A stretch of 64,000 bases of DNA. Origin: a virus. This document shows positions 1 through 18,764 of this stretch, piece by piece. The stretch lies in the IMG/VR virus record IMGVR_UViG_3300036768_001133, positions 8,796 to 72,795 of that record. One strand, 5' to 3'. Each line of letters opens with the position of its first letter. Positions within the stretch are counted from its first letter, which is position 1. The translations under genes and the position numbers were made by a program. The notes below the pieces were generated by a model. The model was not told where the DNA came from, searched no databases, and saw nothing but the letters and a program-made list of their open reading frames with translations.

Positions 1-432
1 ATCAAATACATAATCTATTACCTTGCCTCTATCCTTGTAATATCCCTTATAGATAAGTTTAGGGTTTATAGCATATACTCCACGACCTATGCGTATTAAA
101 ACATTACAAGATACCAAATTATATATGCTTTTTTCTACACACCTTATACTAATACCTAATGTATCCCCTATTATACCCTTATTACGTTTATTTAATACAA
201 TATGCACCAAATCACTACCATAATAGACCTCTCCTAATAAATAGAATAATATCCTATAATCTGTAATATTCACTAAACAACTACACCAACTCATATCCTC
301 CACATATAACTGCACAAACATTTCTACCTCTACACGCTTCACTATACTACTACGCTCCACTAATACACTACCTCCACCTACATTCGTAGTGTCTAAACGC
401 TCATATATTACCTTCCTTGTTCGCTTGGACAT
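1..432 (-). CDS. RepL-like winged-helix replication/regulatory protein (3' end runs off the window; absent from the ORF track)
   Basis: My translation from ATG at 432: MSKRTRKVIYERL...VKRVEVEMFVQLYVED...ISIRCVEKSIYNLVSCNVLIRIGRGVYAINPKLIYKGYYKDRGKV. It is open to base 1, aligns by eye with 7444..7926 and has the RepL-type NPxxxxKG motif after the HTH-wing. Confidence 0.8.
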   Translation of the reverse strand, partial: MSKRTRKVIYERLDTTNVGGGSVLVERSSIVKRVEVEMFVQLYVEDMSWCSCLVNITDYRILFYLLGEVYYGSDLVHIVLNKRNKGIIGDTLGISIRCVEKSIYNLVSCNVLIRIGRGVYAINPKLIYKGYYKDRGKVIDYVFD

Positions 433-460
433 ATACTATTTTTATATGAAAAAAACTTCA

Positions 461-526
461 TTAACGAACTATTGGTTCGGTATTAACGAACTATTGGTTC
501 GGTATTAACGAACTACTGGTTCGGTA
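461..526. repeat. 3 x 22-bp tandem iteron-like repeat (ttaacgaactattggttcggta)
   Basis: Units 461-482, 483-504 and 505-526 (one mismatch in the third); internal dyad cgaac-N5-gttcg; lies just upstream of the RepL-like gene at 1..432. Confidence 0.95.
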
Positions 527-536
527 CTTTTTTCGT

Positions 537-561
537 TAATTCCTTATCTATCAAGCAGATA
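537..561. promoter_or_regulatory. 25-bp dyad IHF-like site, module 1
   Basis: taattccttatctatcaagcagata contains TATCAAgcagATA, one mismatch to the E. coli IHF consensus WATCAANNNNTTR; 10 bp from the repeat array. Confidence 0.5.
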
Positions 562-686
562 CGTATTCATTTGCTATTATCTCACTCTAGCAAAAACTAT
601 TACCTAAAACTACATAAAAAAAATAACAAAAATACCTTATCTAAGGCATATTTGTTACTCCTATGTATAAACCTAACTCCTAAAAA

Positions 687-1115
687 CTAATTCTCAACTT
701 TGCTAATATCTACCTTTTCAAAATTCATCACTAACCTAAACTTCCCCTTCATCAATATATCACTCACCCTATACAACCCTCTCCTAACCCTCTCTAAAAA
801 ACCATAATCCTCTAATACCCTCAATATCATTAACAAATATACACGCTTCACACCTAATAACTCCATCAAATACCTCATACCCTCCCTGTCCCTCGTGCTA
901 AATAAACCATTCCCATATAATACACTTATCTCATATATAGCCTTCATACAACGTGTAAAATTTATTAAACGCTCATCTCCTAAACCCCTCCCCATCATAT
1001 AACCCATAAACTCTATCATATCATATACATTCCCACCCCCTACAACTACCTCTATATAACCATTCCCTATCTCCCTAAAATTAAAAAACTCCTTTAACTT
1101 TACAAACCCTTTCAT
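687..1115 (-). CDS. Winged-helix DNA-binding protein, divergent RepL-like
   Basis: C-terminal LMELLGVKRVYLLMILRVLEDYGFLERVRRGLYRVSDILMKG has the HTH-wing pattern of the two RepL-like proteins, with a degenerate NP..KG motif. Confidence 0.55.
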   Translation of the reverse strand: MKGFVKLKEFFNFREIGNGYIEVVVGGGNVYDMIEFMGYMMGRGLGDERLINFTRCMKAIYEISVLYGNGLFSTRDREGMRYLMELLGVKRVYLLMILRVLEDYGFLERVRRGLYRVSDILMKGKFRLVMNFEKVDISKVEN

Positions 1116-1126
1116 AATATAATAAT

Positions 1127-2977
1127 TTATCCAAATACAAATTTATCCCCCTCCCTACGCCATGTAGGAAACTTAAAACTACTACTACGCTCCTCAAAAC
1201 CTAAACGCAACTCCTCATCATATATCAAACATAACATACTCGCTATCGTCCTGTCATACTCATTCCCCTCAAAATTAAAATTCATTATGTCTTCCACTTG
1301 CTCCCTTATCCATAACTTCTCCATACCCTCCTTCAAATACTTACTAAACCTTTCCACAGCAAACATCTTCCTCCTATAATCCATAACATAACCATACTTG
1401 TTCGTTACCCTACTATACTTTAACCCTATATTCAATAACCTCGGACTACTCGCTAATATACTACCCCAACCTACCTGCTTCAAATACGAAATTATACCTA
1501 TCTTACTATGCTCCACCATCACCTTCGCATTGTAATACAAACATAAACTTAATACACCCTCGTAAAAATCCTCTACATTGCTCGGTCTATCTACATACTC
1601 CGCAACAAACTTCCCCTCCAACCTGTCAAATACATATACAGCCCCCTTACTCTTACTCCATAAACTCTTGTCTTGGTCATAACTATCACAACCCGCTATG
1701 TACCTCCCCTCCTCCACTACCCCACCTACACGTATAGGCTCGTCTATTATTACAAAATTCCCTAACCTGTCCTCCTTAAACTCTACCTCCACCTCAACAC
1801 CACTCCTATATCCATTACAATATAATACACCCCTCTTCACTATTTCCCTATACTCCCTATCACTTATCAATAACAACTCCTCTAACCGCTTCCTCACAAA
1901 CGAAAATGGCGTTATATTGCTTACTAAAAACGCTTCATTTACCTCAAACGGCATCTCTTGTATAAAACTCTCATATGCCCCTATATCACCACTCTCTAAT
2001 AACTTGTTACGCTTCCCCTCTAAATAAACCCTCGCCCCAACTTCATCACTTACCCCATCCTCACCATAATACCCCTCTAACTTCTTGTAAGCAGGTATAA
2101 AATAACATACCCTCTTCCCATTATCAACCTCAAAACTATACAAATTAAAAGCATCAGGATTAAAAAACATATCCCTCGCCTCTATACTACCACCACTCTT
2201 CATCTCTCCACCAGTACCAAATAATATCGCTACACCAGTCCTTATACTACCCCTGTACAAACTATTCTCCACAGCCTTGTAACTATCCTTCAAATTGCTC
2301 TTCCAACTACCTACCTCATCTAATATAACCCTCCTCGGTCTCCCACCCCTCGCCTTACCACTATCATCAAATATTATCATCTCTACCTCACTATTAAAAC
2401 CCTTTCGCAACCTCTCCCCCTTCTCCCCTATATACTCTACCCCACTCATTATATACCCCTCCTTGTCCTTTATCTTACTATGACGCATCTCCTTCGGCAA
2501 ACTATCTAATCCCTCCACCATCTTCTTCCATAACTTTATACCATGTGGATACGTACTCGCACCCAATAAAGCATAACTATTCCTGTAAAATGTATAACTA
2601 TGCGATAATATACAAGCCCCTATGTAACTCTTACCATAACCCCTCCCAGTTATTACAAGCAAATTCTTCCCACTACTAAATGCTAATTCCACTAAATAAA
2701 ATAACTCCCTGTCCTCCTCACTATAATTCGGATAACCTAATACTACCTTACCACCCTCTAACTTGTTTATCTTAAAATAATTCAAAAAAAAATAATACTC
2801 CCCAGTTATCAACTTACCCCCTACTTCATACCCGTATAAACACCTATTCAACTCCTCCCTCCACCAACCTATATACCCCTCCTCTCCCTCTACATAAGGA
2901 CAACCTAACCTCGCCCTAATCAATTCATCTATATACCTGCGCTCCATAATAAAATATATTTTAATAAAATATACCAA
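1127..2977 (-). CDS. terL: Terminase large subunit (crAss-like)
   Basis: N-terminal ITGEYYFFLNY, Walker A TGRGYGKS, Walker B VILDEVG, GTGG coupling motif, RNase H-like nuclease IAGCDSYDQD...DR. The true start may be MERRY at 2947. Confidence 0.93.
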   Translation of the reverse strand: MVYFIKIYFIMERRYIDELIRARLGCPYVEGEEGYIGWWREELNRCLYGYEVGGKLITGEYYFFLNYFKINKLEGGKVVLGYPNYSEEDRELFYLVELAFSSGKNLLVITGRGYGKSYIGACILSHSYTFYRNSYALLGASTYPHGIKLWKKMVEGLDSLPKEMRHSKIKDKEGYIMSGVEYIGEKGERLRKGFNSEVEMIIFDDSGKARGGRPRRVILDEVGSWKSNLKDSYKAVENSLYRGSIRTGVAILFGTGGEMKSGGSIEARDMFFNPDAFNLYSFEVDNGKRVCYFIPAYKKLEGYYGEDGVSDEVGARVYLEGKRNKLLESGDIGAYESFIQEMPFEVNEAFLVSNITPFSFVRKRLEELLLISDREYREIVKRGVLYCNGYRSGVEVEVEFKEDRLGNFVIIDEPIRVGGVVEEGRYIAGCDSYDQDKSLWSKSKGAVYVFDRLEGKFVAEYVDRPSNVEDFYEGVLSLCLYYNAKVMVEHSKIGIISYLKQVGWGSILASSPRLLNIGLKYSRVTNKYGYVMDYRRKMFAVERFSKYLKEGMEKLWIREQVEDIMNFNFEGNEYDRTIASMLCLIYDEELRLGFEERSSSFKFPTWRREGDKFVFG

Positions 2978-2978
2978 C

Positions 2979-3494
2979 CTATATCAACCTGTCTATTAAA
3001 CCCTCCTCCATATTCCCCCTCCTACGCTTACTGCCAGATACACCCCCTAACCCTAATACCAATCCCAACTCCTTCCTCAATTTCACCATATCTAATATCG
3101 CCTTCACCTTCTTCGGCTCACTCTCTACATCTATATCACTCCCACTATAATCCCTAACTACCCTGTCTATACGCTCCACTAACCTCCTATAAACACGCTC
3201 CTCCTGATTGCCTACCTCCTCTAATATCCTATCCACTAAATTAACCAATACCCCCAATAAATTACTATACTCCTCCCTGCTCATCTCCCTACTAAATATG
3301 TCCCTGTATATCACCTCCCCACGCAACGTAATGTCCCCATATACATATACACTGCAATAATACCAATATACATACCTCCTCAAAAAATATTCCTCAACCT
3401 CCCCTAAACCTACTACCAAATTACGCCAATATAAACGATAATCCTCACTTACCTCATATCTATCCCCAATACGCTCTATTATACCTAATTCCAT
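2979..3494 (-). CDS. Hypothetical protein upstream of TerL (possible terminase small subunit by position)
   Basis: 171-aa ORF abutting terL; function inferred from position only. Confidence 0.6.
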   Translation of the reverse strand: MELGIIERIGDRYEVSEDYRLYWRNLVVGLGEVEEYFLRRYVYWYYCSVYVYGDITLRGEVIYRDIFSREMSREEYSNLLGVLVNLVDRILEEVGNQEERVYRRLVERIDRVVRDYSGSDIDVESEPKKVKAILDMVKLRKELGLVLGLGGVSGSKRRRGNMEEGLIDRLI

Positions 3495-3497
3495 ATA

Positions 3498-4268
3498 CTA
3501 ATCCCCTTTTTTACTTATACACTTGCATACACCATATAACTCACTAATATCTAAACTCTCACCAACCCCATAACGCTTGTTACCATAATTCACCCAACCT
3601 ATATTCCCCAACCTGAACCTTATCGTAAAATTATTCCCATTCCTGCCATAATGCCCAAAATCTAAACTACTATCACCTCCCCTTAACCTTAATAATAACC
3701 TTAATAAACTACCCCATAAAGCCTCTAAATACCCGTGAAATACTAAATGACCATAATCACTACATAACATCCTATACCTCCATAAATAACTACCTAATAC
3801 ATCCCCTCCCCTCAATATACCCCTGTAAAATATACCCATTACCCTCAATAAATAAAAATATACATATAACCTCCAATGAAATAAATACCTATCCTTTATC
3901 ACTACTACATTATACCCCCTCTCCAATATCTCCCTGTACATCAACCCATAATCTATATCTATAAACCTGTTTATCCTTAACCTGTAATCCTGTAAATAAT
4001 ATATCTCCCTTAAACAAACACCATTGTAAAATAAACCATTCCCCATCACCATTATACTATAATAATCCCCCTCCCCCTCCCCACCTAATAACCAATCCTC
4101 CATCAATAAACCCCCATATATACCACCACTTATACATACTAAACCATTGCAATTCCTATGACTATACATTATGTTCATCATAAACATAAATAATATCTCC
4201 CCAATTATACCACTATACCCATAACCACGCATTATACCCCTAATACGCTCCTTTAATGAAATAACCAT
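3498..4268 (-). CDS. Hypothetical protein, first gene of the leftward arm
   Basis: 256-aa ORF packed against the next gene with a promoter upstream; extreme composition (no Pro, one each of Ala, Thr, Gln). Confidence 0.6.
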   Translation of the reverse strand: MVISLKERIRGIMRGYGYSGIIGEILFMFMMNIMYSHRNCNGLVCISGGIYGGLLMEDWLLGGEGEGDYYSIMVMGNGLFYNGVCLREIYYLQDYRLRINRFIDIDYGLMYREILERGYNVVVIKDRYLFHWRLYVYFYLLRVMGIFYRGILRGGDVLGSYLWRYRMLCSDYGHLVFHGYLEALWGSLLRLLLRLRGGDSSLDFGHYGRNGNNFTIRFRLGNIGWVNYGNKRYGVGESLDISELYGVCKCISKKGD

Positions 4269-4317
4269 AACAACCTACAATTTCATAAAAAAATACAAAA
4301 ATAAAAATAAATCCCTA

Positions 4318-4348
4318 CAAAATTAAAAACTTATACCACTACTACAAA
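4318..4348 (-). promoter_or_regulatory. Bacteroidota sigma-A type promoter for the terminase arm
   Basis: The minus strand reads TTTG-N19-TAATTTTG, matching the -33/-7 consensus, about 50 bp upstream of the start at 4268. Confidence 0.7.
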
Positions 4349-4483
4349 CAAAAATCTAAAAATTGTCCGATAATAATAACAAAATACTATAAATCATAAA
4401 ATAACCAAATAACCTAAAAACATCTTGATAAACATAAAATATGCCAATGAACATAAGGGTAATACCCAAAGTACCCCCCAATC

Positions 4484-4840
4484 GTGAAACTAAATGAAAT
4501 TCGTATGAGAAAGAAACAAGAAAATCTTGCCAAAGATTTTGACGCTGCAGTCAAACACAACAGGCAGGTATTGTTGGATTTAGGTATAAATCTAACAACA
4601 GCTAAAAAGGGCACATTTGAGGTGTCACTTTCGAAAAAGAAAGTTTCAAGAAGAAACTTCACAAAAAACGAAGTGGAGCAAAGGGAGCTATTCTTCATTA
4701 GCTCCAAATGCGGGAGTCTAAATTTTCCTGCAGATATGCTTGTGCTAACCAGTCCTAAGGTTAGCACAAAGTTAGAAGTGGCTCAGATTGAATATAACCA
4801 ACGAGGTTATATTCAAAGGGTTATTGGTTCGTTCCAATAA
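4484..4840 (+). CDS. Hypothetical early protein (basic), first gene of the rightward arm
   Basis: 118-aa ORF followed by a terminator; base composition is more balanced than its neighbours. Confidence 0.7.
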   Translation: MKLNEIRMRKKQENLAKDFDAAVKHNRQVLLDLGINLTTAKKGTFEVSLSKKKVSRRNFTKNEVEQRELFFISSKCGSLNFPADMLVLTSPKVSTKLEVAQIEYNQRGYIQRVIGSFQ

Positions 4841-4852
4841 CCCGTGTTGTGT

Positions 4853-4877
4853 GGGGGCAATTGCCCCCTCTTTTTTT
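4853..4877 (+). terminator. Rho-independent terminator
   Basis: Perfect palindrome gggggcaattgccccc followed by a T run. Confidence 0.75.
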
Positions 4878-4930
4878 CAGCTTTTTTGGCTTTTTTTCGG
4901 TATTGCTTATTTATTTAAACAAAAAAAAGT

Positions 4931-5098
4931 ATGAAAAGATACCTTATTCATTACTATATACCCTCCCAAAATGTATTTTTGAGAGGGGTATTCGAAGCCG
5001 AAAGCAAATCGGCTTTAATTTCTGAATTGAGAGATTTAGGGTATAGAATTTACAATATTACTTCTATACCTAAACATTTTCATTCTTCTTCCAATTAA
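4931..5098 (+). CDS. Small hypothetical protein (55 aa)
   Basis: ATG after an A-rich leader; MKRYLIHYYIPSQNVFLRGVFEAESKSALISELRDLGYRIYNITSIPKHFHSSSN; below the ORF-track cutoff. Confidence 0.6.
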   Translation: MKRYLIHYYIPSQNVFLRGVFEAESKSALISELRDLGYRIYNITSIPKHFHSSSN

Positions 5099-5127
5099 CC
5101 ACTTAAACCACTTAAACTTAAACGAAA

Positions 5128-5502
5128 ATGAAAGAAGGAAAAAAATACAAAATTATTAGACTCACCCCATACGTTATTAGTGTATGGGGGGACAATGGAT
5201 ATCTAAGTATTCGAACCCTAATAAGGAACTTATGTAACAAAGGGTTCTGTACAAGCTTCCTTGTGAAAAACAAGGAAATGCTTGGGTCTAATCCAACTAT
5301 GTTGGATAATGAAATTATTGATAATATGTTATTCCTTTACAGCCTCGATATAGAGGCGGTAAAGAAAGAATACGAAAGTATTCGTTTGTTTTTAGCCGAA
5401 AACCTAATTAGGTTTTCGGATGAACAATTTCAAAAGAGATATTCTGCCTCCTTTTATAGGAGGTATAGAAGCCTGCCCGACATATGGATCGAGGTAGGAT
5501 AA
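5128..5502 (+). CDS. Hypothetical protein
   Basis: 124-aa ORF with A-rich leader and downstream terminator. Confidence 0.7.
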   Translation: MKEGKKYKIIRLTPYVISVWGDNGYLSIRTLIRNLCNKGFCTSFLVKNKEMLGSNPTMLDNEIIDNMLFLYSLDIEAVKKEYESIRLFLAENLIRFSDEQFQKRYSASFYRRYRSLPDIWIEVG

Positions 5503-5508
5503 TAGTAT

Positions 5509-5548
5509 AGATAGATAACGACATTAGTTGTTATCTATCTTTTTTTTT
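5509..5548 (+). terminator. Rho-independent terminator
   Basis: agatagataacgac-atta-gttgttatctatct hairpin followed by a T run. Confidence 0.75.
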
Positions 5549-5645
5549 GGTTTTTATGTTAGCAGATAAATCAAATTTTTCACTTTCTTCAAGCTCAAAA
5601 CCCTTATTAGGTGAGGGCTTGAAAGTAATAAAGGTATTAGGCACT

Positions 5646-5966
5646 ATGAAGTGCCAAAACCTGTTGAGATATATAAACGAAAACTTTGACAAGTTTTCGT
5701 TTTATGTAAATAATACTCTTTATTTATATTGTATAGATGAAGAGTATGAAGAGCAATATTATATAGGTGAATTAGAGAAGCCTATATATGGGGATTTCAT
5801 AGTAATGATAGTACCACCAAGTTTGGGTACTATTTATTACGATACAGATTACTATGGTAATATAGTGTATTACTATAGTAATATAGTATATAGTAATGCT
5901 AATGATTTGGATAGTATTACTATGGAGAAAGAATACTATGGTATAAGATGTTTAATATCTATATAG
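5646..5966 (+). CDS. Hypothetical Tyr-rich protein
   Basis: Part of ORF 5547..5966. I prefer the in-frame ATG at 5646 because the TTG start overlaps the terminator. Confidence 0.55.
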   Translation: MKCQNLLRYINENFDKFSFYVNNTLYLYCIDEEYEEQYYIGELEKPIYGDFIVMIVPPSLGTIYYDTDYYGNIVYYYSNIVYSNANDLDSITMEKEYYGIRCLISI

Positions 5967-6009
5967 GGATTTAAATAAAAAAAACTTAGGGTAATTGAAA
6001 AAATGACTT

Positions 6010-6138
6010 ATGGCAAGGATTCTATTCTTTATATTTCTTTTACTACTTTTAAATGCTGTTATGGTAATATTAGCATATTCGCAAATAAAATATGGATTGT
6101 ATAAAACAAAAAATATAAAATACATTAAAAAAATATAA
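6010..6138 (+). CDS. Small single-pass membrane protein (42 aa)
   Basis: MARILFFIFLLLLLNAVMVILAYSQIKYGLYKTKNIKYIKKI; partly duplicated at about 9600-9753. Confidence 0.5.
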   Translation: MARILFFIFLLLLLNAVMVILAYSQIKYGLYKTKNIKYIKKI

Positions 6139-6151
6139 AATACATTAAAAT

Positions 6152-6730
6152 ATGGAGTTCATTATTGAATTAAGCAGGTTGAGGGAAACTCCCTGCGAAA
6201 GATACCTTAAACATTTTGAAAATGGGAAAGTAGATGCTCTCAAGCTATTTAGAGAGCTTGGACAGAAATACGAATGGTTATACAACCATTCGGATTATGA
6301 TATTATAAGATTTGAAATAGAAAACGGGATATTTAATTGGGAAGAATATAGTTACTATGTTCCCCAATATTGTCCTGAATATTTTGATGGAAATAAATAC
6401 AATTGGAGAGAAGATAGCTGGGCAATAGTTCAATATTGTCCAGAGCATTTTGATGGGGATAAATACAACTGGGAAAAAGATAGTTGGGCAATAGTTAAAT
6501 TTTGTCCTGAATACTTTGATGGAAATAAATACAACTGGAAAGATCAAGGTTGGGCAATAGTTAAATATTGTCCTGAATACTTTGATGGAAATAAATACAA
6601 TTGGGAGAAACATAGCTATTATGTAGCTATGTATTGTCCTAAATTGTTGGACAAGAATAAATACAATTGGAGAGAAGATAGTTGGGCAGTATCTGAATAT
6701 TGTCCCGAACTATTGAAATATAAACCTTAA
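6152..6730 (+). CDS. 22-aa tandem-repeat protein, paralog 1 (6 repeats)
   Basis: Conserved ~60-aa N-domain, then repeats YNWxxx(S/G)(WA/YY)(I/V)xxYCPxxxDxxK, then a PELLKYKP cap. Confidence 0.9.
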   Translation: MEFIIELSRLRETPCERYLKHFENGKVDALKLFRELGQKYEWLYNHSDYDIIRFEIENGIFNWEEYSYYVPQYCPEYFDGNKYNWREDSWAIVQYCPEHFDGDKYNWEKDSWAIVKFCPEYFDGNKYNWKDQGWAIVKYCPEYFDGNKYNWEKHSYYVAMYCPKLLDKNKYNWREDSWAVSEYCPELLKYKP

Positions 6731-6738
6731 CATTTCAT

Positions 6739-6770
6739 AACACACAAAGTTACAAACTTTGTGTGTTTTT
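6739..6770 (+). terminator. Rho-independent terminator
   Basis: aacacacaaagtt-aca-aactttgtgtgtt 13-bp stem followed by Ts, directly after paralog 1. Confidence 0.75.
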
Positions 6771-7044
6771 ATTTGTGTTCGTTATTAGTTCAAAAATGTA
6801 ACAACAAAAATTTAAAAAATAGGCAAGTGTGATAAAGCCAATTACATAGACTACAAGTTCCTAGATAAAAAGCCCACTATTAGAGATTTTCAAGAAAAAA
6901 ATCTACTTACAAATTTTGAACTTTTTCAAGATATTGCCGCTTAACTCACGTTATATAATATTTATATGTGTGTAATAATTCACACATATAGATTTTTTTT
7001 ATGCTTACGCATACGCTAAATATATAAGAAAAGAAAATATAGGA

Positions 7045-7069
7045 TAATACATTGTTTATCAATGTTTTA
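7045..7069. promoter_or_regulatory. 25-bp dyad IHF-like site, module 2
   Basis: taatacattgtttatcaatgtttta contains an exact WATCAANNNNTTR match (7057-7069) and a one-mismatch copy on the other strand. Confidence 0.55.
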
Positions 7070-7080
7070 CGATAAAAATT

Positions 7081-7145
7081 ATTACTCTATGGGGCTAATG
7101 AAATTACTCTGTGGGAGTAATTTCAATAGTCTGTCAGAGTAGTAA
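7081..7145. repeat. 3 x 22-bp degenerate iteron-like repeat (attactctgtgggagtaatttc type)
   Basis: attactctatggggctaatgaa / attactctgtgggagtaatttc / aatagtctgtcagagtagtaa; the middle unit is an attactc-N5-gagtaat dyad. Confidence 0.7.
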
Positions 7146-7214
7146 AAAATTTAAAAGAAGTCCTTTTTTTTTAGTTTATGTGTGCAATATACTAATATAT
7201 AGTAAAATAAGAGT

Positions 7215-7239
7215 TAAATAATTGATTATCATATATTTA
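7215..7239. promoter_or_regulatory. 25-bp dyad IHF-like site, module 3
   Basis: taaataattgattatcatatattta has an exact WATCAANNNNTTR match on the minus strand (7215-7227) and sits in a longer inverted repeat taagagttaaata...tatttaactctta. Confidence 0.55.
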
Positions 7240-7250
7240 ACTCTTATGAA

Positions 7251-7315
7251 AATGTCGTTTTCGGTTGATAATAATGTCGTTTTCGGTTAATAATAATGTC
7301 GTTTTCGGTTAATAA
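7251..7315. repeat. 3 x 22-bp tandem iteron-like repeat (aatgtcgttttcggttaataat)
   Basis: Units start at 7251, 7273 and 7295; followed by an AT-rich tract and the RepL gene. Confidence 0.95.
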
Positions 7316-7443
7316 AATACACTATTTTGAGTGTATTTTATACATTATTTGATATGTATAAAGAAAATGTATTTTAAGCTTTTTTTTTAATTTTTAATAC
7401 TTATATTTGTGTGTATTAAATACTAATTATTAGATGTAAAAAT

Positions 7444-7926
7444 ATGAAAAATGCAAAGACAAAAATTTATGAAGAGATTAAAACTGTAATAAACGAAGAT
7501 GGGGAAATAATTACAGCTGAATTTACAACAGTAAAAAAAGTAACTAAGGAAACGTTCTTACAGGTTTATTTAGATGATTTTTACTCCTTAATGAGAATTA
7601 GAGAGGGAAACGAATACAAATTAGTTCTGTGGATAGGTAAAAATATGAATTTCGATAATGAAATAATACTGGTTAAGGAAATAAAAAATAGAATCGCCAA
7701 TGAAATTGAGTGTAATGTAAGAACCATAGATAACTCAATACGGTCGTTGGTATCTAAGGGCATTTTAATCAAGTCTGGGAGGGCTATTTTTACTTTAAAC
7801 CCACATTTATTTTTCAAGGGCAGCTTAGACCAGCGGAATAAACTCAAAAAGCTTATAAAGAAAGTAGAATACGATTTCTTAGAAGAAGATGAAACAAAAG
7901 AAATACAAAGTGATAGCAAAGGTTGA
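7444..7926 (+). CDS. repL: RepL-family replication initiator/maintenance protein
   Basis: IANEIECNVRTIDNSIRSLVSKGILIKSGRAIFTLNPHLFFKG (wHTH plus NPxxFFKG); TATATTTG -7 box at 7402-7409. Confidence 0.8.
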   Translation: MKNAKTKIYEEIKTVINEDGEIITAEFTTVKKVTKETFLQVYLDDFYSLMRIREGNEYKLVLWIGKNMNFDNEIILVKEIKNRIANEIECNVRTIDNSIRSLVSKGILIKSGRAIFTLNPHLFFKGSLDQRNKLKKLIKKVEYDFLEEDETKEIQSDSKG

Positions 7927-8125
7927 TAATAACAAGTTTGTAAAGTATAACGTAAATAATTTGATTCTTTTCACGAAATTTCTTGACAGGAGCTTTCAGG
8001 TTTGTTGGCGTTGGTTCAATGTGATAGCAATATTTTGTTTGTTTTATATGGCTACTATTTTTACATTTGTGTTAGTAGTTAGTTTTATATTATTACCTAT
8101 AAAGGTTATACTATGGTTAGTATGA
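7889..8125 (+). CDS. Hypothetical protein with C-terminal hydrophobic segment
   Basis: 78-aa ORF overlapping both neighbours. Confidence 0.55.
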   Translation: MKQKKYKVIAKVDNNKFVKYNVNNLILFTKFLDRSFQVCWRWFNVIAIFCLFYMATIFTFVLVVSFILLPIKVILWLV

Positions 8126-9414
8126 TAGATGTTGAATTAGACAGCATATATTATTGTCTAATAAACAATAGCAATATACGTATATTTGATAGGGAATACT
8201 ATACAAAGGGTGATACTTTGTATATGTATGACAAGTTAGTTGAAATATATAATAAAGAAAAATATGTCAGTTTGAATATATTTAGGAATGAGATAAAGGG
8301 GGATAGTATATTGCATAAGTATTTATCTGTATATAATGATAAATATGTATGTAGTTATACTATTGAAGAATGTGAAAAGATAATGAGGAGAGACTACAAT
8401 AGAAGGGTATTTATAGATATGATAAATGATAAGTCCTTATTAAGGGCTAGTGATGATAGGATATTGGAGGTGATGATGGAGGTCATAAGCAAGTTTAGGG
8501 GGAATAAGATGGAAAATATAGTTAGTAATTTTGATAAGATGGTTGAATACATAATTAATGTAGATAATAACAGGTATAAAATAGGTATAGAGGGTATAGA
8601 TAGTTCTATATCTATAGAGCCTGATAGGTTTATAGTGATAGGTGGGGCGAGTGGTAGTGGGAAGACAGCCTTCAGTGTATTTTTAATAAACAAGCTATGT
8701 CAGTTGTATAGTGATAGCTTGTATGTTTTATTTATAAGCCTTGAGATGAGTGAGATAAGAGTGATGATGAGGTTAATAAGTTTATTATCGGGAAAGAGCA
8801 TTGGGGAGTTAAAGGCTGTAGATAAAAGTTTTTTTGAAGGGTATAGGGATATAATTAGTGGTTATTCATTAGATATAATGTATAGCACTATGGATATTCC
8901 AAAGTTATCTGCAGTATTGCAGATGCATATAAATGAAGCAAATAGAAAAGGTAAGATACCTGTGGTTTTTATAGACCATTTTGGAGAAGTAAGTGGTTTA
9001 GATGAACATACAGCGAAATCTAACACAGATAAAGTAACCGCTTTGTGTAAGGATGTAGCAAGACAAGGCGGCATATGTTTCGGTCTTACGCAATTGCGTA
9101 AGGATTTGTTAGATAAGAGGAATGAAGGCAGTTATTACAAGCCTTCAAATGGATACATTATGAATAGTCAGAGTGTAGAAGCGAGGGCAGATGTAATAAT
9201 GCACTTGTGGAGACCTGAATATCATAATGTATTAGAGATAATAGAAGAGGAAAAAGATATGATAAGAGTAATAGATACAAGAGGTAGTATATGTATAGTA
9301 AATGATAAGAACAGGGATTTTAAGAAGGGTGATATATGGCTGGATTGTGATATTAAAACGAATAGTTTTAAGGATATTCATAGTAGTAAAATACAAATTA
9401 TTAATAAATTTTAA
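8113..9414 (+). CDS. dnaB: DnaB-like (SF4) replicative helicase
   Basis: Walker A GASGSGKT, H1a FISLEMS, H2 VFIDHF, H3 LTQLRK, H4 EARADVIMHLWRP, arginine finger KNR. Confidence 0.92.
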   Translation: MVSMIDVELDSIYYCLINNSNIRIFDREYYTKGDTLYMYDKLVEIYNKEKYVSLNIFRNEIKGDSILHKYLSVYNDKYVCSYTIEECEKIMRRDYNRRVFIDMINDKSLLRASDDRILEVMMEVISKFRGNKMENIVSNFDKMVEYIINVDNNRYKIGIEGIDSSISIEPDRFIVIGGASGSGKTAFSVFLINKLCQLYSDSLYVLFISLEMSEIRVMMRLISLLSGKSIGELKAVDKSFFEGYRDIISGYSLDIMYSTMDIPKLSAVLQMHINEANRKGKIPVVFIDHFGEVSGLDEHTAKSNTDKVTALCKDVARQGGICFGLTQLRKDLLDKRNEGSYYKPSNGYIMNSQSVEARADVIMHLWRPEYHNVLEIIEEEKDMIRVIDTRGSICIVNDKNRDFKKGDIWLDCDIKTNSFKDIHSSKIQIINKF

Positions 9415-10164: not shown

Positions 10165-10743
10165 ATGGAATTTATTGTTGAATTAGAAAAGCTAAGGGAA
10201 ACACCTTGCGAAAGATACCTTGAACATTTTATAGATGGTAAAGTCGACGCTCTCAAACTATTTAGAGAGCTCGATGAACAATATGAATGGTTGTATGCAT
10301 ATTCGGACTATGATATAGTCCGTTATGAAATAGAAAATGGAATATTTGATTGGGAAAAACACAGCCGTTATGTTGCTGCGTATTGTCCTGAATATTTTGA
10401 TGGAAATAAATACAATTGGGAAAAATATAGCTGTTACGTTGCTCAATATTGTCCTCAATACTTGGACAAAGAGAAATACAATTGGGAAGTTGATAGTTGG
10501 GCAATAGTTAAATATTGTCCGCAATATTTTGATAAAGAAAAATACAATTGGAAAACTGATAGCTGGGCAATAGCTGAATATTGCCCACAATATTTCGATA
10601 AAGAAAAATACAATTGGGAGAAACATAGCTATTATGTTGCTATGTATAGTCCTGAACTATTGGACAAAGATAAATATAATTGGAAAGAAGATAGCTGGGC
10701 AGTAGCTAAATACTGTCCCGAACTATTGAAATATAAACCTTAA
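10165..10743 (+). CDS. 22-aa tandem-repeat protein, paralog 2 (6 repeats)
   Basis: Same N-domain, repeat unit and cap as 6152..6730. Confidence 0.9.
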   Translation: MEFIVELEKLRETPCERYLEHFIDGKVDALKLFRELDEQYEWLYAYSDYDIVRYEIENGIFDWEKHSRYVAAYCPEYFDGNKYNWEKYSCYVAQYCPQYLDKEKYNWEVDSWAIVKYCPQYFDKEKYNWKTDSWAIAEYCPQYFDKEKYNWEKHSYYVAMYSPELLDKDKYNWKEDSWAVAKYCPELLKYKP

Positions 10744-10757
10744 TTATTTTTACTACA

Positions 10758-10816
10758 AAAGGCAAAACCCGAAAAGCCTGTAATAAAGTAGGGGTAAAAA
10801 AAACAAGTAAAAAAAA
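10758..10816 (+). repeat. Conserved leader, copy 2
   Basis: aaaggcaaaacccgaaaagcctgtaataaagtaggggtaaaaaaaacaagtaaa before paralog 3. Confidence 0.85.
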
Positions 10817-11431
10817 ATGGAATTTATTATCGAATTAAGCAGGTTAAAAAAAGAACCCTGCGAAAGATATTTAAAGTATTTTATAGACGGCAAAATCGAT
10901 GCTCTCAAGCTATTTAGAGAGCTTGGCGAACAATATGAATGGTTGTACAGACATTCGGATTACGATATTATAGGATTTGAAATAGAAAATGGAATATTTG
11001 ATTGGGGAAAATATAGTTATTATATTGCTGAACTTTGTCCGCAATATTTGGACAAAGATAAGTATAACTGGAAGGAACATAGCTGGGCTGTTGCTGAATT
11101 TTGTCCCAAGCATTTGGACAAAGATAGATACAATTGGGAAGAAGATGGTTGGGTAGTTGCGAAATATTGTCCCGAACTATTGGACAAGGAGAAATATAAC
11201 TGGGAAAAAGATAGCTATTATATTGCGAAATATTGTCCCGAGCATTTGGACAAGGACAAATACAATTGGGAGAAATGCAGCTGGGCTGTTGTTGAATTTT
11301 GTCCCGAGCATTTTGATAAGGATAAATATAATTGGAAAGAAGATAGTTGGGCAATAGCTCAATTTTGTCCCGAACTATTGAAATATAAAAAAGGCAAAAC
11401 CCGAAAAACCTGTAAAAAAGTACAAAACTAA
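10817..11431 (+). CDS. 22-aa tandem-repeat protein, paralog 3 (6 repeats; stop lost, reads into the next leader)
   Basis: Ends PELLKYK-KGKTRKTCKKVQN, with the tail encoded by leader copy 3. Confidence 0.9.
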   Translation: MEFIIELSRLKKEPCERYLKYFIDGKIDALKLFRELGEQYEWLYRHSDYDIIGFEIENGIFDWGKYSYYIAELCPQYLDKDKYNWKEHSWAVAEFCPKHLDKDRYNWEEDGWVVAKYCPELLDKEKYNWEKDSYYIAKYCPEHLDKDKYNWEKCSWAVVEFCPEHFDKDKYNWKEDSWAIAQFCPELLKYKKGKTRKTCKKVQN

Positions 11432-11436
11432 AAAGT
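11390..11436 (+). repeat. Conserved leader, copy 3 (degenerate)
   Basis: aaaggcaaaacccgaaaaacctgtaaaaaagta before paralog 4. Confidence 0.8.
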
Positions 11437-12216
11437 ATGAAATTTATTGTCGAATTAAGCAGGTTAAAAAAAGAACCCTGCGAAAAATACCTTAAACATT
11501 TTGTAAATGGTAAAGCTGACGCTCTCAAATTATTTAGAGAGCTTGGCGAACAATACGAATGGTTGTACAGACATTCGGACTATGATATTATAGGATTTGA
11601 AATAGAAAATGGAATATTTGATTGGGAAAAATATAGCTATTATATTGCCCAATATTGTCCCGAGCATTTGGACAAAGAGAAGTATAACTGGGACGAAGAT
11701 GGTCTTTATGTTGCCGAATATTGTCCCGAGAATTTGGACAAAGAAAAATACAATTGGAAAGACCATAGTTGGGCAATAGCCCAATATTGTCCCGAACATT
11801 TTGATAAGGACAGATATAATTGGGAAGAATATAGTTATTATATTGCTAAATATTGTCCGCAATATTTAGACAAAGAGAAGTATAACTGGGAAAAACAAAG
11901 TTGGGCAATAGCCCAATATTGTCCCAAGCATTTTGATGAGGATAAATATAATTGGAAAGAACATGGTTATTATATAGCCTTATATTGTCCTCAATATTTT
12001 GATAAAGATAGATACAATTGGGAAAAACATAGCTATTATGTTGCGAAATATTGTCCCGAGCATTTGGACAAGGATAGATACAATTGGGAGCAATGTAGTC
12101 GCTATGTTGCCCAATATTGTCCGCAATATTTGGACAAGGACAAATATAATTGGGAAGAACATATTTGGGCAGTAGCTCAATTTTGTCCCGAACTATTGAA
12201 ATATAAACCTTATTAA
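11437..12216 (+). CDS. 22-aa tandem-repeat protein, paralog 4 (9 repeats)
   Basis: Same architecture with three extra repeats. Confidence 0.9.
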   Translation: MKFIVELSRLKKEPCEKYLKHFVNGKADALKLFRELGEQYEWLYRHSDYDIIGFEIENGIFDWEKYSYYIAQYCPEHLDKEKYNWDEDGLYVAEYCPENLDKEKYNWKDHSWAIAQYCPEHFDKDRYNWEEYSYYIAKYCPQYLDKEKYNWEKQSWAIAQYCPKHFDEDKYNWKEHGYYIALYCPQYFDKDRYNWEKHSYYVAKYCPEHLDKDRYNWEQCSRYVAQYCPQYLDKDKYNWEEHIWAVAQFCPELLKYKPY

Positions 12217-12228
12217 AATTTTACATTT

Positions 12229-12459
12229 ATGAAAAAAAGCAAAGTGTCCATTTCAAAAAGAATGAAAATATTAGAGAAACTAATAGATGTAGATGGTTTT
12301 GATGAACTAATAGAAAATTTTATTATTGATTGTTCTTTTGAGCTTGCAAGATATAGACAAGCAGAAGAGCATAATAAAGCTAAAAGGCTTGAAAAGAAAA
12401 TAATTAAATTTCTGGAAAAAGTAAAAACATCAAGAAAACTATACTTAGGAGAAATATGA
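12229..12459 (+). CDS. Hypothetical protein
   Basis: 76-aa ORF with ATGA overlap to the next gene. Confidence 0.65.
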   Translation: MKKSKVSISKRMKILEKLIDVDGFDELIENFIIDCSFELARYRQAEEHNKAKRLEKKIIKFLEKVKTSRKLYLGEI

Positions 12460-12998
12460 TTTACAAAAAATTATCTGAAATTCAAAGTAAAATAAAAGTT
12501 CCTAAAACGCAATACAATAGTTTTGGGAAATATAATTACAGGTCTTTGGAAGACATATTTGAAGAAGTAAAAAAGTATTTAGACGAATACAAACTATCTT
12601 TGTATTTGTCTGATGAAATAGTTTTAATAGGTGATAGATATTATGTTAAAAGTACCGCTATACTTGTTGATGTAGAAGATGGTGCAAAGATAGAAAGTAT
12701 TGCATATGCGAGAGAGGAAGAAAATAAAAAAGGTATGGACGGAAGTCAAATAACAGGAGCATCGTCAAGTTATGCAAGAAAATATGCTCTCGGTTCATTA
12801 TTTTTGTTAGATGATAACAAAGATAGTGATTATACTAATACTCATGATAAAAACGATAAACCTATTTTGACAGAAGACAAGATAGGTAAAGCAGTAGAAT
12901 ATATGAAAGAGAAGAAGATAAGCATAAATGAACTGAAAAAGAAATATACTATAAGCAAAGATATAGAAGACAAGATTTTATCTTTATTAAAAAATTAA
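12456..12998 (+). CDS. ERF-family single-strand annealing recombinase
   Basis: KVPKTQYNSFGKYNYRSLEDI and AREE..KKGMDGSQITGASSSYARKYAL..LFLLDD.KDSD signature. Confidence 0.92.
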   Translation: MIYKKLSEIQSKIKVPKTQYNSFGKYNYRSLEDIFEEVKKYLDEYKLSLYLSDEIVLIGDRYYVKSTAILVDVEDGAKIESIAYAREEENKKGMDGSQITGASSSYARKYALGSLFLLDDNKDSDYTNTHDKNDKPILTEDKIGKAVEYMKEKKISINELKKKYTISKDIEDKILSLLKN

Positions 12999-18293: not shown

Positions 18294-18764
18294 ATGATTA
18301 CCAAAGAAATCTTAGAAGCCCTAAAAGAAATTAACCTGCAAAAAGATTTTAACGAAGAAGATAAGAAACTTATTACAAATCTTTTACAAAATAAAGTGTT
18401 TAATATCTATTACGTTATCAAACACTTGGAAAAAGATATAGACGAGTACAAAAATATTATAGACAAATACAAAAGTAAAATAAACAATACTCAACACAAA
18501 ATAGATTTTCTCAAAGACTTAATGCTTCAAGCAGTTAAACAAGAAAATATCAAATATATTACTGATGAAGATGGTGTTATACTACATACTATCTCACAAA
18601 GACAATCTTATAGTATTATCATTACTGATGAAAACAACATACCTGATAACTTCAAAAAAGTTTCTTATACTATTGACAAAAATAAATTAAAAGATTATAT
18701 TGCAGAAGGTAATATCGTAGAAGGTTGTTATATTGAAACAAAAGACTATTTAACCATTCACTAA
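18294..18764 (+). CDS. Siphovirus Gp157-like protein
   Basis: Coiled coil followed by I.DENNIPDNF.....IDKNKLKDYI.EG.IVEG pattern. Confidence 0.75.
   Translation: MITKEILEALKEINLQKDFNEEDKKLITNLLQNKVFNIYYVIKHLEKDIDEYKNIIDKYKSKINNTQHKIDFLKDLMLQAVKQENIKYITDEDGVILHTISQRQSYSIIITDENNIPDNFKKVSYTIDKNKLKDYIAEGNIVEGCYIETKDYLTIH

Follow-up and report, generated by a model that had tools for sequence, protein, structure and literature searches.

The stretch of DNA considered here, referred to as the window, comprises 64,000 nucleotides of a virus record (IMG/VR IMGVR_UViG_3300036768_001133), namely positions 8796-72795 of its 72,795 bp. Near the left end of the window lie two genes for RepL proteins, named RepL1 and RepL2, and three arrays of three 22-bp units each, named modules 1, 2 and 3. 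Module 1 and RepL1 are located between the genes of the large terminase (TerL) and the portal protein, and modules 2 and 3 precede RepL2 and the gene of a replicative helicase. The virus appears to be a distant crAss-like phage, since the best matches of its TerL and portal in the phage collection belong to the Crassvirales, at about 25-28% identity (portal about 25%). The features of the locus, in window coordinates and with protein lengths in amino acids (aa), are the following:

1-432 (genome 8778-9227), minus strand: RepL1 gene, 149 aa, whose last five codons and stop codon lie left of the window
460-526, minus strand: module 1, three 22-bp iterons (Tandem Repeats Finder, TRF: 3.0 x 22 bp, 97% matches, score 127)
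532-557, no strand assigned: inverted partial iteron (532-543) and TATCAA box (548-553), the box one mismatch from the consensus of integration host factor (IHF)
687-1115, minus strand: gene of a 142-aa putative winged-helix protein, part of a G-rich TerL block
1127-2947, minus strand: TerL gene (phrog_6681 of PHROGs, E 1.8e-76), which bounds the RepL1-containing TerL-portal slot on the left
Genome 6424-8706, just left of the window: portal gene (phrog_6547 of PHROGs)
6960-6993, plus strand: terminator-like hairpin, followed by the left edge (7002) of the insertion/deletion segment that holds RepL2
7036-7080, plus strand: box and conserved leader of module 2, with an exact IHF-consensus match at 7057-7069; kept at 4500-4544 of the relative L140
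7081-7146, plus strand: module 2, three 22-bp dyad units (30/44 in the period scan), no adjacent gene
7207-7247, plus strand: module 3 palindrome with 20-nt arms (90%) and an IHF-consensus match at 7215-7227 on the minus strand
7251-7316, plus strand: module 3, three 22-bp direct iterons (TRF: 7251-7315, 3.0 x 22 bp, 97%, score 123)
7312-7341, plus strand: perfect 12-bp hairpin closing module 3 (DNA fold z -6.0)
7317-7443: tract of 15% GC after the hairpin that closes module 3
7444-7926, plus strand: RepL2 gene, 160 aa (PF05732)
8113-9414, plus strand: gene of a DnaB-like replicative helicase (PF03796, E 1.7e-18; phrog_19), downstream of RepL2

Architecture of the three arrays

The original prediction, made from the letters of the window, described three arrays of exactly three 22-bp units with differing unit sequences. 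In a scan of all 72,795 bases for three-copy self-similarity, scored out of 44, a value of at least 29 at period 22 is reached in exactly three places of the genome, which are modules 1 (43), 2 (30) and 3 (42); the genome mean is 13.1, with a standard deviation of 3.4. The arrays are thus real and are the sole period-22 arrays in the 72.8 kb, and searches with the array cores of all three modules found no further copy elsewhere in the genome. Module 2 is not listed by TRF at a minimum score of 30, and a repeat search reports it as an inverted repeat with 31-nt arms (77%).

Two arrays consist, as had been proposed, of dyads with a 5-bp spacer. The units of module 1 read TTAACGAAC-N5-GTTCGGTA (CGAAC-N5-GTTCG), and the central unit of module 2 reads ATTACTC-TGTGG-GAGTAAT. 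The units of module 3 are asymmetric. Module 1 ends 27 nt before the ATG of RepL1 and module 3 ends 128 nt before that of RepL2, so that both point into RepL genes, and module 2 does indeed stand without an adjacent gene. The flanks of the arrays have 15-18% GC, compared with 30% for the window. Phased direct repeats beside an AT-rich tract, the general hallmark of an iteron origin, are found in all three modules, each with a period of 22.

A 25-bp dyad with IHF boxes had also been proposed to accompany every array, and here the modules are less uniform. The palindrome of module 3 is well supported, as none of 200 shuffles folds as well (z -6.0). The candidate palindromes of module 2 (z -1.85, 10 of 200 shuffles) and module 1 (z -1.7, 11 of 200) are weak, and the counterpart of the former in L140 is unfolded (z -0.45). 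The feature common to the modules is a TATCAA-type, IHF-like box, whose distance from the first unit is about 17-23 nt, and TATCAA boxes flank the arrays of L140 as well. Exact matches to WATCAANNNNTTR number 22 in the genome, including those of module 2 (7057, plus strand) and module 3 (7215, minus strand); a search for the exact IHF consensus in module 1 found none, the best match there having one mismatch.

The RepL proteins

RepL1 (E 4.5e-10, 39.7 bits) and RepL2 (E 8.1e-14, 51.9 bits) both exceed the 20.3-bit cut-off of the Pfam family PF05732, and a six-frame search of the genome with this family finds these two only. Aligned to the RepL2 family, RepL1 reaches an hhalign probability of 98.6% at 28% identity. 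In an alignment of 13 sequences both phage proteins are colinear with 11 plasmid RepLs at 20-31% identity, and residues G20, N119, P120, K125 and G126 are invariant, which includes an N-P...K-G wing motif. The AlphaFold2 (AF2) model of RepL2 contains a winged-helix core at residues 50-125, where the predicted local distance difference test (pLDDT) is 72-91. A search of the PDB by sequence gave no RepL structure.

A third RepL-like protein had been suspected at 687-1115, and this part of the profile check did not bear out. The 142-aa protein has no PF05732 match, an hhalign probability to the RepL2 family of 0.75% and a BLASTP value to RepL1 of E 0.44; its sole Pfam match is AbiEi_4, at E 0.03. 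Its AF2 model is poor (pLDDT 54) and the ESM Atlas uninformative. Among 1.84 billion representative sequences it has one full-length homologue (P0011, 44% identity), and P0010 is a near-identical (99%) partial version of 86 aa. The protein is therefore not detectably RepL by the profile and alignment searches made, and no evidence was found for its proposed pairing with the orphan array. A further sequence, P0012 (123 aa), combines, in scrambled order, residues 1-28 of the 142-aa protein with fragments from the C-terminus of TerL and from the N-terminus of the 171-aa protein; it probably reflects chimeric assembly within the G-rich block.

Close homologues are scarce. RepL1 has none past its own cluster and the relative L004, searches of IMG/VR with RepL2 alone, with the RepL2 alignment and with DnaB gave no relative, and neither did a search of GTDB genomes with the RepL2 alignment. 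PHROGs and NCBIfam contain no match to RepL1, RepL2 or the 142-aa protein.

Comparison with small RepL plasmids and other replicons

Searching PLSDB with RepL2 by tblastn returned 23 records, mostly plasmids of 1.5-6 kb with a gene annotated as "replication/maintenance protein RepL". Eleven of these were sampled, nine as complete small plasmids and two as regions of larger plasmids, and the 700 nt 5' of each repL were scanned for the best three-copy period among 10-33. A triplet lies upstream of repL in nine of the 11 loci, with a period of 22 in eight and 21 in one, a self-match of 68-100%, and its end 80-173 nt before the repL ATG. The two misses are pONE430 (1,527 bp, RepL being its sole annotated coding sequence), which has no array, and pRGI00569, which has just an AT-rich period-22 stretch about 540 nt upstream. 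When whole plasmids were scanned, eight of the nine complete ones had a period-22 window of at least 29/44, a score reached by none of 200 shuffles for each.

Among the plasmid units are many dyads with a 5-bp spacer, as the following examples show:

Bacillus plasmid unit: ATTACAT-GAGGG-ATGTAAT
Arsenophonus and Aeromonas plasmid unit: TCACT-GTGAG-AGTGA
Sodalis pSG3 unit: TTACTC-TATGT-GAGTAG
Pseudomonas pBYT5-6 unit: TACTCTGTGGAGGTA

The unit of module 2 belongs to the type of pSG3 and pBYT5-6, and both module 1 and module 3 present a triplet of about 22 bp within about 250 nt upstream of repL. Because plasmids show 22-bp triplets and 5-bp-spacer dyads upstream of repL, the phage modules have the architecture of RepL plasmid replicons, and the initiator/iteron reading of the original prediction is well founded. 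Small RepL plasmids (Sodalis pSG3, Pseudomonas pBYT5-6 and those of Bacillus, Priestia, Arsenophonus and Aeromonas) resemble the phage locus in a RepL of 150-200 aa with the same colinear motifs and in an upstream 22-bp repeat triplet, often of dyads with a 5-bp spacer. They differ in that the phage modules reside within a 72.8-kb genome, as two copies of different sequence plus an array without a gene, and in that module 1 is much nearer to its gene. A full-text search found no printed account of the triplet array as a general trait of RepL plasmids, which is not proof of its being unpublished.

Classical Rep_3 iteron origins combine phased repeats, an IHF bend site, an AT-rich tract and an autoregulated initiator gene, with dyad sites for initiator dimers. 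The phage modules are like those of pSC101, F, R6K and pPS10 in having phased repeats, a candidate IHF-type site, an AT-rich tract and an adjacent initiator gene, and unlike them in that the initiator is RepL and not Rep_3, a family absent from the Pfam matches of RepL1, RepL2 and the 142-aa protein.

The pHW126-like plasmids (pHW126, pIGRK, pIGMS31) have a Rep that is distantly related to RepL (bioRxiv 10.1101/2022.12.05.519187; PMC2831885). Their minimal origin contains a conserved region (CR) together with four iteron-like repeats of 20 bp, and Rep nicks DNA, with rolling-circle and theta intermediates both seen (bioRxiv 10.1101/2022.12.05.519187; PMC2831885). The RepL-related RepM of pIGMS31 binds iterons and an inverted-repeat operator, and its autoregulation has been shown (bioRxiv 10.1101/2022.12.05.519187). 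In these plasmids a winged-helix Rep gene is preceded by a palindrome, direct repeats of iteron type and an inverted-repeat operator, an arrangement that the phage locus resembles. Their repeats, four of 20 bp, differ from the three 22-bp units found here, where palindromes flank module 3.

Prototype crAssphage (Carjivirus communis) has two repL genes that are 24.6% identical, as well as software-predicted origins, one of them just upstream of repL (PMC10983915). It resembles the present phage in its two distantly related RepL genes (28% identity here). Its repL genes lie at both ends of a plus-strand block, whereas one of those described here lies between TerL and portal. A three-copy array with a period of 16-26 was found within about 1.35 kb upstream of neither of the two repL genes of BK010471.1. 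Because these two lack them, the arrays appear to be a feature of the cassettes of the present lineage and not obligatory for phage or crassviral RepL.

Conservation and exchange of the modules

Counterparts of the arrays are kept in three relatives, that of module 1 in L004, that of module 3 in L005 and that of module 2 in L140:

L004 (IMG/VR): RepL1 97% identical; order TerL, 142-aa gene, module 1, RepL1, portal as here
L005 (metagenome contig): RepL2 85% identical
L140 (IMG/VR, 9.6 kb): distant relative with TerL 45%, portal 48% and the 171-aa protein 39% identical

In L004 the changes of module 1 are confined to spacer and junction positions, and the same G>T at the equivalent position of two units renders their arms perfectly symmetric. 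L005 keeps the palindrome of module 3, its three iterons and the sequence just before the ATG; the 16-nt core of the iterons is unchanged and their 6-nt linkers are variable. Only between about 7190 and about 7900 is L005 homologous to the window, and the gene that follows is a different one. Since the homology stops at these limits, module 3 and RepL2 form a unit of about 0.7 kb that is present in two contexts. A pattern of two module 3 iterons had no match in IMG/VR, and a single-iteron pattern had at least 119 single-copy matches, evidently by chance.

The TerL-portal interval of L140 holds a RepL-like gene, a pair of 21-bp dyads, seven 65-bp repeats, a RusA gene and a copy of module 2. The RepL-like protein has 187 aa and an hhalign probability of 94.7% to the RepL alignment; it is 24% identical to RepL2 (E 1e-5) and has no BLASTP similarity to RepL1. 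Its gene has the pair of 21-bp dyad units as its own array, with TATCAA boxes on the flanks. Along about 115 nt that include its box, the copy of module 2 is about 88% identical to that of the window. No change affects the arms of units 1 and 2 (28/28), and across the three units six of 24 spacer and linker positions differ, as counted from the alignment. Because of this conservation, the idea that module 2 is a decayed relic was rejected. Its central 19-mer was absent from all other IMG/VR contigs and from the GTDB genomes. The seven 65-bp tandem repeats, AT-rich (19-23% GC), occupy 4675-5210 of L140, where they separate the copy of module 2 from the RusA gene, and may be an unwinding or binding region.

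Variants of the locus are also found among sequencing runs, which were compared through assembled Logan contigs at a likeness threshold of 85. Two contigs, from runs of two studies, join position 7002 to 8024 and to 8027, respectively, with 2-5 other letters between. At these joints the shorter side is 39 or 51 nt long, and to the right the contigs match the window at 94-96% identity over about 975 nt, with the reservation that joints at a likeness below 95% can stem from other organisms. Because the contigs join 7002 to 8024/8027, there is good but not conclusive evidence that the relatives bearing them lack the 1.02-kb segment with module 2, module 3 and RepL2. The missing segment begins right after the terminator-like hairpin at 6960-6993 and stops 89 nt before the helicase gene. 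Another contig retains 6995-7156, with module 2, and then diverges. In one contig of a third run, a weak case, the match starts at 1089 and continues rightwards, with an 11-nt core of the module 3 iteron just before that position. These joints, the different context of module 3 and RepL2 in L005 and the differently filled slot of L140 lend direct support to the earlier idea of a mobile site-plus-RepL unit. Gaps in contig cover, such as that of run X10 over 1-496, were given no weight.

A 14-nt direct repeat (93%) occurs at 7906-7919, in the 3' end of RepL2, and at 8017-8030, the right edge of the missing segment, and may mark a recombination point. An open reading frame (ORF) of 78 aa with a long hydrophobic stretch lies at 7889-8125, in the interval between RepL2 and the helicase gene and partly within the segment. 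Contigs from hot springs cover 1-4100 with 27 differences, and contigs from wastewater cover 1232-3613 with 27 and 497-1118 with seven. The TerL block is about 99% identical across studies and the early region to its right is mosaic, with replaced or skipped segments at 4484-4756, 5965-6995 and 6006-6820.

The position of RepL1 was compared in 22 distinct phages matched by both TerL and portal, plus crAssphage. The two matches lie within 310 nt of each other in 20 of the 22 phages and are adjacent in crAssphage too (21/23 records). The exceptions are cr115_1, with an HNH endonuclease gene, and MT835839.1 (L007), with ORFs at 2493-3830 whose motifs we read as those of a putative intein. The gap measures about 1.2 kb in the present phage and about 2.3 kb in L140, and each holds a RepL-type gene and arrays, the occupants not being orthologous. 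For this reason the lineage keeps a cassette slot between TerL and portal whose content is exchanged. A recent insertion of RepL1 into an otherwise empty TerL-portal junction was rejected, as the slot of L140 is occupied too.

Interpretation and alternatives

On balance, the modules are probably exchangeable plasmid-type RepL replicon cassettes, each serving as an origin, an autoregulatory operator or both. Every 3 x 22-bp array, with two helical turns per site, would be a landing pad for a RepL winged-helix protein, which would bind the dyad units as dimers, and the TATCAA/IHF-like box and the AT-rich flank would aid bending and melting. RepL2 and module 3 head the replication block and would most likely nucleate origin opening and the loading of the host replisome. 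Recruitment of the host replisome is suggested because searches of the genome for family A/B DNA polymerases and Toprim_2 (PF00136, PF00476, PF13155) gave no match; plasmid and lambdoid initiators work in this manner. RepL2 probably represses its own promoter region as well.

RepL1 and module 1 would constitute a second, different cassette in the TerL-portal gap, for which autoregulation is likely since module 1 abuts the start of the gene. Module 2 may be the shared origin proper, as the canonical type of its units, its conservation and the long AT-rich repeats next to its L140 copy would suggest, or else a site to which RepL is supplied in trans. Recombination would exchange the cassettes between genomes and positions. 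The binding of the proteins to the arrays, their pairing, the firing of the origins and autoregulation are steps that we infer from the architecture and the comparisons above.

Several findings weigh against this interpretation. Module 1 is nearer to its ATG than any plasmid array and suits an operator better than an origin, and the units of module 3, unlike most plasmid units, are no dyads. The crAssphage repL genes do without arrays, and the apparent absence of the RepL2 segment from some relatives shows it to be dispensable for the lineage. The preservation of module 2 at 88%, although the nearby RepLs are 24% identical, means that its binder may be something else. Furthermore, the fold search with RepL2 returned generic winged helices of transcription factors (CodY, CRP/FNR, ArsR), none at E <= 0.001.

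Part of these findings would suit arrays that are transcriptional operators only, where the RepLs repress or switch the units that they head (the portal and structural genes for RepL1, the helicase block for RepL2) and have no origin function. The short distance of module 1, the kinship of the fold with transcription factors and the array-less RepL genes of crAssphage would all be expected, dyad units suit dimeric repressors, and RepL1 and RepL2 each open a gene block after a terminator-like hairpin. The same triplets, however, stand upstream of RepL, annotated as a replication protein, in plasmids of 1.5-5 kb, the orphan module 2 controls no adjacent gene, and the iterons of the RepL-related RepM are part of a minimal origin (bioRxiv 10.1101/2022.12.05.519187). 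An operator role without any origin function is thus rather unlikely.

Module 2, and perhaps the other arrays, could instead be a decoy, incompatibility or handcuffing locus that titrates the RepL initiators of this phage, or of phages and plasmids resident with it, for copy control or superinfection specificity. In favour are that module 2 has canonical RepL units but no gene of its own, that a distant relative preserves it in another place, and that it is more conserved than any nearby RepL; yet an origin proper would be equally conserved, and in the collections searched module 2 is carried by only two genomes. We regard this explanation as improbable. A broader proposal, also rather unlikely, takes module 2 for a portable RepL origin or decoy that lacks a protein of its own, is preserved almost unchanged in divergent phages while their RepL genes are swapped, and is served or titrated in trans by the RepL initiators of phages and plasmids in the same cell; the arrays would then form an iteron compatibility code. 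If true, the arrays would decide which co-resident phages and plasmids replicate together in one cell.

It is very improbable that module 1, together with RepL1, the 142-aa protein or both, makes up a packaging-recognition (pac/TerS-like) system. The locus does adjoin TerL, the gap of L140 likewise holds a RepL-like gene and arrays, and the 142-aa protein and a 151-aa protein of L140 share a winged-helix-like motif and both flank TerL. Against this, no TerS family of Pfam or PHROGs matches RepL1 or the 142-aa, 171-aa and 256-aa proteins, the slot occupants are not orthologous, and in 21 of the 23 Crassvirales records TerL and portal are direct neighbours.

Interpreted as replicon cassettes, the modules follow a known design, that of the iteron replicon. 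New are the match to a plasmid-wide triplet, the conserved gene-less array, the TerL-portal slot and the presence/absence variants. To our knowledge, the start of replication in crAss-like phages is not known experimentally, and for a phage with neither a polymerase nor a Toprim match, recruitment of the host replisome by an initiator and its origin would be a central part of its biology. The cassettes link phage RepL genes to a repeat architecture common to small RepL plasmids and offer three short DNA targets and two small proteins, defined for binding and origin assays. The natural variants in which they are present, absent or exchanged are in effect an existing test of how specific the initiators are for their sites and of incompatibility among mobile elements.

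Genome context and further observations

The ends of the record overlap by 123 bp within a TCA repeat, so that the assembly is best regarded as circular or permuted. Its 72.8 kb, with overlapping ends, are fewer than the 90-105 kb of the matched Crassvirales. Searching phages by blastn with window positions 1-8000 gave no match. Runs that contain the phage or close relatives are labelled as microbial mat, hot springs, aquatic and wastewater. The minus strand carries every gene from 4268 to the left, and the plus strand those from 4484 to about 20,650, a block that also includes:

12456-12998: Erf-like annealing protein
18294-18764: Mu Gam-like protein

A scan of 1-9000 with Rfam found no family at E <= 0.1, and a scan for sigma-70 promoters scored no higher than shuffles. 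TAnnTTTG boxes occur at 7402 (plus strand) and 634 (minus strand) and were given no weight, as the window has 180 copies.

The minus-strand genes of the 142-aa protein, TerL and the 171-aa and 256-aa proteins form a compositional island at 687-4268. Its coding strand has C at 0.02-0.06, G at 0.32-0.37 and T at least equal to A, compared with C at 0.07-0.17 in other genes, and the plus-strand GC skew is -0.6 to -0.8. The homologous TerL block of L140 (1-3400) has a skew of G over C too (0.49-0.70), which stops at the TerL terminator. Such a shift, with A and C down and G and T up, is the pattern that exposed-strand deamination or selection for C-poor mRNA would give.

Coding repeats of 66 bp, with units of about 22 aa that are YCPEYFDGNKYNW-like, build paralogous genes at 6152-6730 and 10165-12216, and the former gene is bypassed in contigs of two runs (joint 6006>6820).

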